DNA of 64,000 nucleotides from Escherichia coli (lineage in GTDB: Bacteria; Pseudomonadota; Gammaproteobacteria; Enterobacterales; Enterobacteriaceae): assembly GCF_003334255.1 (NCBI RefSeq), contig NZ_QOWU01000011.1; one strand, written 5' to 3'. Both the position numbers and the translations under genes were made by a program. Each line of letters starts with the position of its first letter. The stretch's first letter is position 1. Of this stretch, positions 59,680 to 60,909 are shown piece by piece. The notes beneath the pieces were generated by a model. It had not been told where the DNA came from, ran no database searches, and saw only the letters and a program-made list of their open reading frames with translations.

Positions 59680-60909
59680 ATGTCTAATATTTGGTCTAAA
59701 GAAGAAACTCTGTGGAGTTTCGCGCTCTACGGCACAGCCGTTGGTGCAGGCACGCTCTTCCTTCCTATTCAGTTAGGTTCGGCAGGGGCTGTGGTCCTGT
59801 TTATTACTGCTCTGGTCGCCTGGCCTTTAACATATTGGCCACATAAAGCCTTGTGCCAGTTCATCCTCTCATCAAAAACATCAGCAGGTGAAGGGATAAC
59901 GGGCGCGGTAACACACTACTATGGCAAGAAGATTGGTAATCTGATTACCACGCTGTACTTCATCGCCTTTTTTGTCGTCGTGTTGATATATGCAGTGGCA
60001 ATTACCAACTCACTTACGGAACAGCTGGCAAAGCATATGGTTATTGATCTTCGCATCCGTATGTTGGTGAGTCTGGGTGTTGTATTAATTCTGAATCTCA
60101 TTTTTCTGATGGGACGTCATGCCACTATTCGGGTAATGGGATTTTTGGTATTCCCATTGATTGCCTATTTCTTATTTCTTTCCATTTACCTTGTCGGTAG
60201 TTGGCAACCTGATCTATTAACAACCCAGGTAGAGTTCAATCAGAATACCCTTCACCAGATATGGATATCGATTCCCGTGATGGTTTTCGCCTTTAGCCAT
60301 ACGCCCATTATTTCTACGTTTGCCATAGACAGACGTGAAAAATATGGCGAACACGCTATGGATAAATGCAAAAAAATTATGAAAGTCGCTTATCTCATCA
60401 TCTGCATAAGTGTACTGTTCTTTGTCTTTAGCTGCCTGCTTTCTATTCCACCTTCGTATATTGAAGCTGCTAAAGAAGAAGGGGTCACCATTTTATCGGC
60501 GCTTTCTATGCTGCCGAACGCCCCAGCATGGTTGTCAATTTCCGGGATTATTGTCGCAGTAGTTGCGATGTCGAAATCATTCCTGGGTACGTACTTTGGC
60601 GTTATTGAAGGTGCCACAGAGGTCGTCAAAACAACACTACAGCAGGTTGGTGTAAAGAAAAGTCGTGCATTTAACCGCGCACTATCAATTATGTTGGTAT
60701 CGCTGATTACCTTCATTGTTTGTTGCATTAACCCGAACGCGATTTCGATGATTTACGCGATCAGCGGCCCGCTCATTGCCATGATACTTTTCATCATGCC
60801 TACGCTGTCAACGTATCTCATCCCGGCGCTTAAACCCTGGCGTTCCATCGGAAATCTGATTACGCTGATCGTGGGTATCCTGTGCGTATCGGTAATGTTC
60901 TTTAGCTAA
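59680..60909 (+). CDS. yqeG: HAAAP-family transporter (serine/threonine transporter paralogue)
   Basis: 409-aa polytopic ORF with clear similarity to SdaC in this window (WSFALYGTAVGAGTLFLPI vs [19 protein letters not shown]). Confidence 0.85.
   Translation: MSNIWSKEETLWSFALYGTAVGAGTLFLPIQLGSAGAVVLFITALVAWPLTYWPHKALCQFILSSKTSAGEGITGAVTHYYGKKIGNLITTLYFIAFFVVVLIYAVAITNSLTEQLAKHMVIDLRIRMLVSLGVVLILNLIFLMGRHATIRVMGFLVFPLIAYFLFLSIYLVGSWQPDLLTTQVEFNQNTLHQIWISIPVMVFAFSHTPIISTFAIDRREKYGEHAMDKCKKIMKVAYLIICISVLFFVFSCLLSIPPSYIEAAKEEGVTILSALSMLPNAPAWLSISGIIVAVVAMSKSFLGTYFGVIEGATEVVKTTLQQVGVKKSRAFNRALSIMLVSLITFIVCCINPNAISMIYAISGPLIAMILFIMPTLSTYLIPALKPWRSIGNLITLIVGILCVSVMFFS

Follow-up and report, generated by a model that had tools for sequence, protein, structure and literature searches.

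Introduction

Within the HAAAP family of Escherichia coli, the characterised transporters closest to YqeG are SdaC, an L-serine:H+ symporter, and TdcC, a threonine/serine:H+ symporter, both assigned to the STP subfamily. The family further comprises the aromatic amino acid permeases and another STP-like pair, CyuP (YhaO) and YhjV, which are predicted to have the architecture of YqeG and of which YhjV is an orphan y-gene product like YqeG. Characterised HAAAP members are proton symporters, whereas several of the APC-superfamily carriers with solved structures are antiporters or exchangers. In the LeuT fold, unwound segments of TM1 and TM6 bind the alpha-carboxyl and alpha-amino groups of the substrate. 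A literature search for structures of HAAAP proteins found none.

YqeG itself has entered the literature through work on threonine transport. Khozov et al. (2023) recovered yqeG by tblastn among the homologs of SstT or TdcC (PMC10070963), and Bubnov et al. (2025) found it among eight genes that act in multicopy as suppressors in an auxotroph deficient in threonine uptake (PMC12003319). Of these eight, yqeG acted most weakly, and a deletion of the gene gave no phenotype. The authors, who pointed out that the suppression could be indirect, remarked on the relation to SdaC and TdcC and named YqeG as one of the proteins that have no established physiological function (PMC12003319). There is weak genetic evidence for threonine translocation by YqeG but, in contrast to TdcC, no measurable threonine uptake at 800 uM threonine (PMC12003319). 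The initial annotation of the locus, which found the substrate not evident from the sequence, agrees with this assessment. Here we analyse yqeG in its genomic context, using a 64,000-nucleotide stretch of E. coli DNA (hereafter, the window) that also contains sdaC.

Results

The yqeG gene and its prevalence in E. coli

The window consists of E. coli K-12-type DNA, with approximately 1.9 kb around yqeG being 100% identical to strain MC4100 and yqeG itself 100% identical to its E. coli K-12 counterpart. The gene is an uninterrupted, ATG-started ORF of 409 codons plus stop, named yqeG and described as an 'amino acid permease' in RefSeq (WP_000065950.1), and its orthologs keep both the start methionine and the N-terminus MS(N/K)IWSKEETLW. 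The features of the locus are collected in Table 1.

Table 1. Coordinates of the features of the yqeG locus and of sdaC in the window.
Feature	Position	Strand	Evidence
yqeG CDS	59680..60909	+	ORF, RefSeq, TIGR00814, Pfam Trp_Tyr_perm, SdaC alignment
sdaC	2282..3571	+	429-aa ORF; TIGR00814, 618.8 bits; paralog aligned with YqeG
yqeF	58244..59428	-	Divergent from yqeG, 251-bp spacer between
CRP-like palindrome AGTGATTTTTATCACA, candidate site, 15/16 positions versus TGTGA-N6-TCACA	59498..59513	.	Pattern search, yqeF-proximal conserved block
Predicted core promoter and 5' UTR of yqeG, containing TTTATGGTAAATTGC	59626..59679	+	54 bp conserved upstream
N-terminal motif, residues 12-30 WSFALYGTAVGAGTLFLPI: TM1a, unwound G-A-G, TM1b (predicted)	59713..59769	+	Motif search, model
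Residues 188-215: TM6a, unwound FAFSHTP, TM6b (predicted); putative second half of the substrate site	60241..60324	+	Model, alignment
Intrinsic-terminator-like hairpin, 16-bp stem, 3-nt loop, then CATTTTTCAT	60920..60954	+	Terminator scan, RNA fold

Taking coverage of at least 80% of a 1901-bp yqeG-spanning query as presence, the region was found in 5383 of 5426 complete E. coli genomes; coverage was below 80% in 36 of 5419 genomes, so that yqeG is occasionally inactivated in nature. In E. coli strain H3 (NZ_CP028732.1), an IS1A insertion splits the match to the yqeG region in two, and the annotation gives two permease fragments in place of one gene.

YqeG as a divergent relative of SdaC and TdcC

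The locus had been annotated as encoding a second HAAAP-family transporter in the same window as sdaC, sharing with SdaC its topology and the N-terminal motif WxxxLYGTAxGAGxLFLPI. The comparison bears this out. The two proteins align essentially end to end (BLASTP, 38% identity, 64% positives, E=1e-97, YqeG 5-409 with SdaC 18-426), and the motif occurs literally in both, at residues 12-30 of YqeG and 25-43 of SdaC, the latter protein carrying an N-terminal extension of approximately 13 residues that is absent from YqeG. A tblastn search of the whole window with YqeG matched only two loci, yqeG and sdaC.

Profile searches and RefSeq agree with the gene name and family originally proposed. Pfam PF03222 (Trp_Tyr_perm) matches residues 16-378 of YqeG (i-E = 4e-11), a match that is also precomputed for the same protein in the database; homology extends to characterised members of the family (SdaC, TdcC and the aromatic permeases); and the length of 409 residues, with approximately 11 membrane-length helices read off the DSSP string of the structural model described below, fits the HAAAP architecture of about 400-450 residues, 11 TM segments and LeuT-type organisation. 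At a finer level, the NCBIfam subfamily model TIGR00814 ('serine/threonine transporter') matches YqeG over its full length (profile 1-397, E=6.9e-155, 516.0 bits). SdaC also matches this model over its whole length and scores above its curated cutoff of 525.8 bits, of which YqeG falls 9.8 bits short. Because of this score, we regard YqeG as a divergent relative of the STP subfamily rather than as a certified member. With the TdcC equivalog model NF010152, the match of 214.5 bits is far below the cutoff of 645; TdcC shares the subfamily and shows a near variant of the N-terminal motif of YqeG and SdaC, but yqeG does not belong to the tdc operon. The genomic setting also differs from that of sdaC, which is followed, in what looks like an operon, by an ORF (3629-4996) that we take to be sdaB, encoding L-serine deaminase, whereas yqeG is predicted to be monocistronic and to have no catabolic partner.

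To place YqeG among its relatives, we aligned the eight HAAAP proteins of E. coli K-12 jointly, taking the six other paralogs from NC_000913.3. In this alignment YqeG is 39% identical to SdaC, 31% to TdcC, 22% to CyuP, 19% to YhjV and 15-17% to Mtr, TnaB and TyrP; for comparison, the same alignment yields 53% for SdaC-TdcC, 45% for CyuP-YhjV and 53% for Mtr-TnaB. In an exhaustive HMMER search of 1.84 billion cluster representatives, no more than 498 clusters reached E <= 1e-3. Among the full-length representatives other than YqeG itself, P0121 comes closest, with 42% identity to YqeG, and the next one (P0122), at 38%, is about as far from YqeG as SdaC.

The phylogeny of HAAAP members proposed in the initial annotation was inferred by neighbor joining with 100 bootstrap replicates. 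The resulting tree shows that YqeG orthologs are monophyletic (100/100) and pair with P0121 (95/100), while CyuP/YhjV and the aromatic permeases form clades of their own, apart from YqeG, with full support (100/100 for each). By distance, the nearest neighbours of YqeG are P0121, SdaC and P0122, and YqeG groups with SdaC and TdcC. A clade of SdaC and TdcC excluding YqeG was recovered in 1/100 replicates, and the branching order among YqeG, SdaC and TdcC is not settled by the tree. By these sequence relationships, YqeG is placed in the serine/threonine branch of the HAAAP family, as a separate lineage.

P0121 derives from metagenome contigs (L013-L015) on which the gene order asmA-dcd-apbC-metG-[permease], as deduced from Pfam domains, is of enterobacterial type. 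Its gene is flanked by a metG-type gene (tRNA-synthetase domains) on one side and one for a Zn-peptidase on the other, and the encoded protein carries the motif FALYGTAVGAGTLFLPIQLG, identical to that of YqeG.

Predicted fold and lineage-specific substitutions

A sequence search of the PDB with YqeG returned no match at E <= 1, and the residues of the substrate site were consequently placed by fold search and by analogy with other LeuT-fold carriers. The AlphaFold2 model, calculated from a 76-sequence alignment, is all-helical and of high confidence (pLDDT 92.4, pTM 0.90). A Foldseek comparison with the PDB returned AdiC, ApcT, SLC7A10, BasC, LAT1/2 and GkApcT, all of them solved APC-superfamily carriers of the LeuT fold, with TM-scores of 0.65-0.73 and only 10-16% sequence identity. 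Like AdiC, ApcT, BasC, SLC7A10 and LAT1, the modelled YqeG has a broken TM1 and a broken TM6, and its predicted fold is that of the APC/LeuT carriers, a match that supports an alternating-access mechanism.

In the model, TM1 is composed of two helices (residues 7-20 and 23-33) with a break at 21-22 inside GTAVGAG, and G22, G24 and P29 are invariant across the 76-sequence family alignment. TM6 breaks at 205-207 inside FAFSHTP, a segment that aligns with FSFNHSP in SdaC and FSFNFSP in TdcC, YqeG and SdaC having in common the pattern F-x-F-x-H-x-P-I-I-S.

Against this conserved framework, comparison of six sampled YqeG orthologs with the SdaC/TdcC-like group (positions conserved in at least 7 of 8 sequences) revealed 29 positions that are invariant in the orthologs while the other group conserves a different residue. 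G268, in the helical loop between TM7 and TM8, is N in 70/70 other family sequences. V99 and I290 are P in the others and T304 is H, whereas T25, directly after the G-A-G of TM1, is V or I, and A204, at the end of TM6a, is S. Together with the TIGR00814 score below the cutoff, these lineage-specific substitutions argue for an altered specificity or altered kinetics, and against YqeG being a plain third serine/threonine carrier.

It is against these data that the simplest reading of the paralogy has to be weighed, namely that YqeG is a redundant third L-serine/L-threonine:H+ symporter which has the specificity of SdaC and TdcC and is only regulated differently. Such a carrier would be in keeping with the identity of its closest characterised relatives, with the full-length match to a serine/threonine profile, with the improved growth of the threonine-uptake-deficient auxotroph bearing multicopy yqeG (PMC12003319) and with the co-induction of yqeG with sdaC and sdaB in lettuce medium (PMC6729007). 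The rank of yqeG as the weakest suppressor and its lack of measurable threonine uptake (PMC12003319), however, fit such a carrier poorly, as do the missed curated cutoff, the replacement of near-invariant family residues (e.g., N268G) and the clustering of YqeG with P0121 instead of within SdaC or TdcC. We therefore consider this reading rather unlikely.

yqeG belongs to the conserved backbone flanking the ETT2 island

The gene had also been described as lying at the edge of an AT-rich island, and the base composition agrees: GC is 0.40-0.46 over yqeG, and immediately beyond the terminator of the gene it drops from about 0.44 to about 0.33, remaining at 0.30-0.38 from about position 61000 on. 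The stretch from 61000 to 64000 is the start of the ETT2 remnant, with yqeH (annotated at 61369-62001, the mechanical ORF starting from a TTG at 61309), yqeI (62335-63144) and yqeJ. Shortly before the annotated start of yqeH, at 61309-61337, there is a strong promoter-like match (TTGACA-17-AATTAT, with extended TG).

Abutting this island, yqeG might be taken as part of it, that is, as a gene of a horizontally acquired, H-NS-silenced ETT2 island with a function in type III secretion or virulence, or as a decaying remnant. Its GC content (44.5%) and GC3 (0.49) are below the window means (52% and 0.554), yqeF and yqeG are counted with ETT2 in some of the literature (PMC11068852), and a fragment from yqeG to ygeL has served as a substrate for H-NS hairpin formation in vitro (PMC12460168). 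Since yqeG lies inside this silenced fragment, it may be expressed at a very low level in K-12 in the laboratory. Gene order, in contrast, ties yqeG to the chromosomal backbone. Orthologs with 85-92% identity to YqeG occur in Salmonella, Citrobacter, Enterobacter, Shimwellia and Lelliottia, and Salmonella and Enterobacter share the order araE-kduD-kduI-yqeF-LysR-BTP(PF05232)-yqeG, which the shorter Citrobacter locus reproduces from kduD onward. Downstream of yqeG, the DNA is unrelated between these three genera. The shared synteny and the differing downstream DNA indicate that yqeG is the conserved gene at the left edge of a variable insertion site. In Citrobacter, this downstream DNA encodes amidohydrolase and carbamate-kinase-type domains, which resemble the ygeW-yqeA cluster, presumably located beyond ETT2 in E. 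coli.

Composition and selection point the same way. The GC content of yqeG orthologs follows that of the host genome (47% in Salmonella, 53% in Enterobacter, 54% in Shimwellia), and dN/dS for the E. coli-Enterobacter pair is about 0.03, in the same range as for yqeF, kduI and kduD, this value being approximate, with dS near saturation, and the only one quoted because dS is saturated between E. coli and Salmonella. Strong purifying selection thus acts on the gene, which is no decaying remnant; its ORF is intact and nearly universal in E. coli. Furthermore, E. albertii strains without ETT2 retain both yqeF and yqeG (PMC11068852). Neither island-dependent presence nor an AT-rich, acquired composition is accordingly found for yqeG, whose GC content falls between the window mean and the island. 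Membership in the ETT2 island is largely refuted by the synteny and, as an explanation of yqeG, is extremely improbable; the original statement on the island edge is refined in that yqeG is conserved backbone flanking the island, and not part of the AT-rich island itself.

In Shimwellia blattae (L006/L007), the yqeG ortholog (88% identity) is not beside yqeF. Its neighbours there are an iron-siderophore-type ABC transporter (FecCD/Peripla_BP_2) on one side and an AaeAB-like efflux operon on the other. The gene has thus been relocated in this genus, with the protein still highly conserved.

The yqeF-yqeG spacer

As the initial annotation noted, yqeG is divergent from yqeF, the two genes being on opposite strands and separated by 251 bp. 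The spacer between them is a mosaic. Its left block (59381-59521, starting inside yqeF) is common to the yqeF side of Salmonella and Enterobacter, and its right end is conserved with yqeG: positions 59626-59720 are 83% identical to Salmonella and 77% identical to Enterobacter by blastn, the Enterobacter match running from 59628. The approximately 104 bp in the middle (59522-59625) are found only in E. coli, in place of a pair of approximately 1.6 kb which in Salmonella, Enterobacter and Citrobacter comprises a divergent gene for a LysR-type regulator and a gene for a PF05232 membrane protein (BTP/PACE family, AceI-like), located between yqeF and yqeG (L002:5437-6859, L004:5449-6881, L016:3417-4858). 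A tblastn search of the E. coli spacer for relics of the Salmonella LysR and PACE proteins gave only chance-level matches (E >= 0.55). This absence suggests that the Escherichia lineage lost the pair cleanly, or that the pair was gained elsewhere, either event having changed the upstream context of yqeG. Among the genera sampled, the direct divergent adjacency of yqeF and yqeG is specific to E. coli, which refines the pairing originally described.

The conserved 54 bp preceding yqeG are its probable core promoter and 5' UTR. A sigma-70 consensus scan gave no promoter in the spacer (overall, 5 matches versus 5.7 expected from shuffled sequences), and the assignment is for this reason drawn from the conservation of the block. 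No clear Shine-Dalgarno sequence precedes the yqeG ATG, and an Rfam scan of 59300-61500 at E <= 1 returned no riboswitch or leader. On the other side of the gene, the terminator-like hairpin begins 11 nt past the stop codon and is markedly stable (-20.9 kcal/mol, z = -5.98, with 0/200 shuffles as stable), indicating that the yqeG transcript is probably monocistronic. A miRNA model of Rfam also matched this hairpin, at 20.3 bits versus a gathering score of 68, and was dismissed as a chance match. Sites of sigma factors and of HusR mapped by genomic SELEX lie downstream of yqeG, in the yqeG-yqeH spacer (PMC5493296, PMC12844172).

The yqeF-proximal block of the spacer contains the candidate CRP-like palindrome of Table 1, which is kept upstream of yqeF in Salmonella (AGTGAGTTTTATCACA) and Enterobacter (AGTGAGTTTAATCACA). 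Five CRP-like sites were found in the window versus 1.73 expected, a number reached in 8/100 shuffles and thus not significant by itself, and the site is retained as a lead because of its conservation across genera. The other sites within one mismatch are at 8084-8099, 8124-8139, 13294-13309 and 43121-43136, the first two falling between ORFs that we take to be fucA and fucP. Many of the genes co-induced with yqeG in glucose-free plant medium are, we presume, CRP-dependent. The candidate site would fit both the decrease of yqeF, along with fad genes, in a CRP V140W mutant (PMC7174635) and the induction of yqeG in that medium (PMC6729007).

These observations, and the near-consensus palindrome within a short divergent spacer, would be expected if yqeG and the thiolase gene yqeF formed one functional unit in which uptake by YqeG feeds a YqeF-dependent pathway under shared control from the CRP-like site. 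The comparison with other genera does not favour such a unit: in Salmonella, Enterobacter and Citrobacter, yqeF and yqeG are set apart by the unrelated LysR/PACE pair, with the CRP-like site remaining on the yqeF side, so that the adjacency in E. coli is secondary. Moreover, the neighbourhood of the Shimwellia ortholog is entirely different, and metabolically nothing connects an amino acid permease with an acetoacetyl-CoA thiolase. A joint function with yqeF is, in our judgement, improbable.

Discussion

Taken together, these data make it very likely that yqeG encodes a vertically inherited, functional inner-membrane secondary transporter of the STP branch of the HAAAP family, within the APC superfamily, and that it carries out the SdaC/TdcC-like, proton-coupled import of a small polar amino acid. 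Redundancy with SdaC and TdcC, a unit with yqeF and membership in ETT2 are all less well supported than this explanation. By analogy with SdaC and TdcC, YqeG would be a monomeric LeuT-fold carrier that works by alternating access. The alpha-amino and alpha-carboxyl groups of the substrate would be held where TM1 (GTAVGAG) and TM6 (FAFSHTP) are unwound, and a small polar amino acid would be imported together with a proton. Proton coupling and the direction of import, both taken solely from the paralogs, are most likely the same in YqeG, and its substrate most likely belongs to the class of small polar amino acids. Threonine is at best a poor side-substrate. The fixation in the YqeG lineage of substitutions at family-conserved positions suggests that the physiological substrate is probably not simply L-serine or L-threonine.

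The identity of YqeG, its paralogy with SdaC, its family and its position at the ETT2 border were already annotated or published, and no new biology arises from their finding here. The present analysis adds, modestly, a list of lineage-specific substitutions, evidence that yqeG is backbone and not island, and the E. coli-specific absence of the LysR-PACE pair upstream of yqeG. Building on these, one may tentatively entertain the possibility that the YqeG lineage, restricted to Enterobacteriaceae and with a single distant sister cluster (42% identity), has a specificity other than serine or threonine, for instance for a plant- or gut-derived non-proteinogenic small amino acid, and that the loss of the LysR-PACE pair in Escherichia gave yqeG a different, possibly CRP-dependent, promoter context. 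If this were true, a distinct substrate and a new promoter context would explain the strong conservation of yqeG, its induction by plant extract, its near-nil threonine activity and the lack of a phenotype in standard media.

In practical terms, YqeG bears on the engineering of threonine- and serine-producing strains, where residual re-uptake routes cut yield (PMC12003319). For the biology of the organism, yqeG still counts among the y-genes of E. coli K-12, and a known substrate would fill a small gap in its map of amino acid transport.
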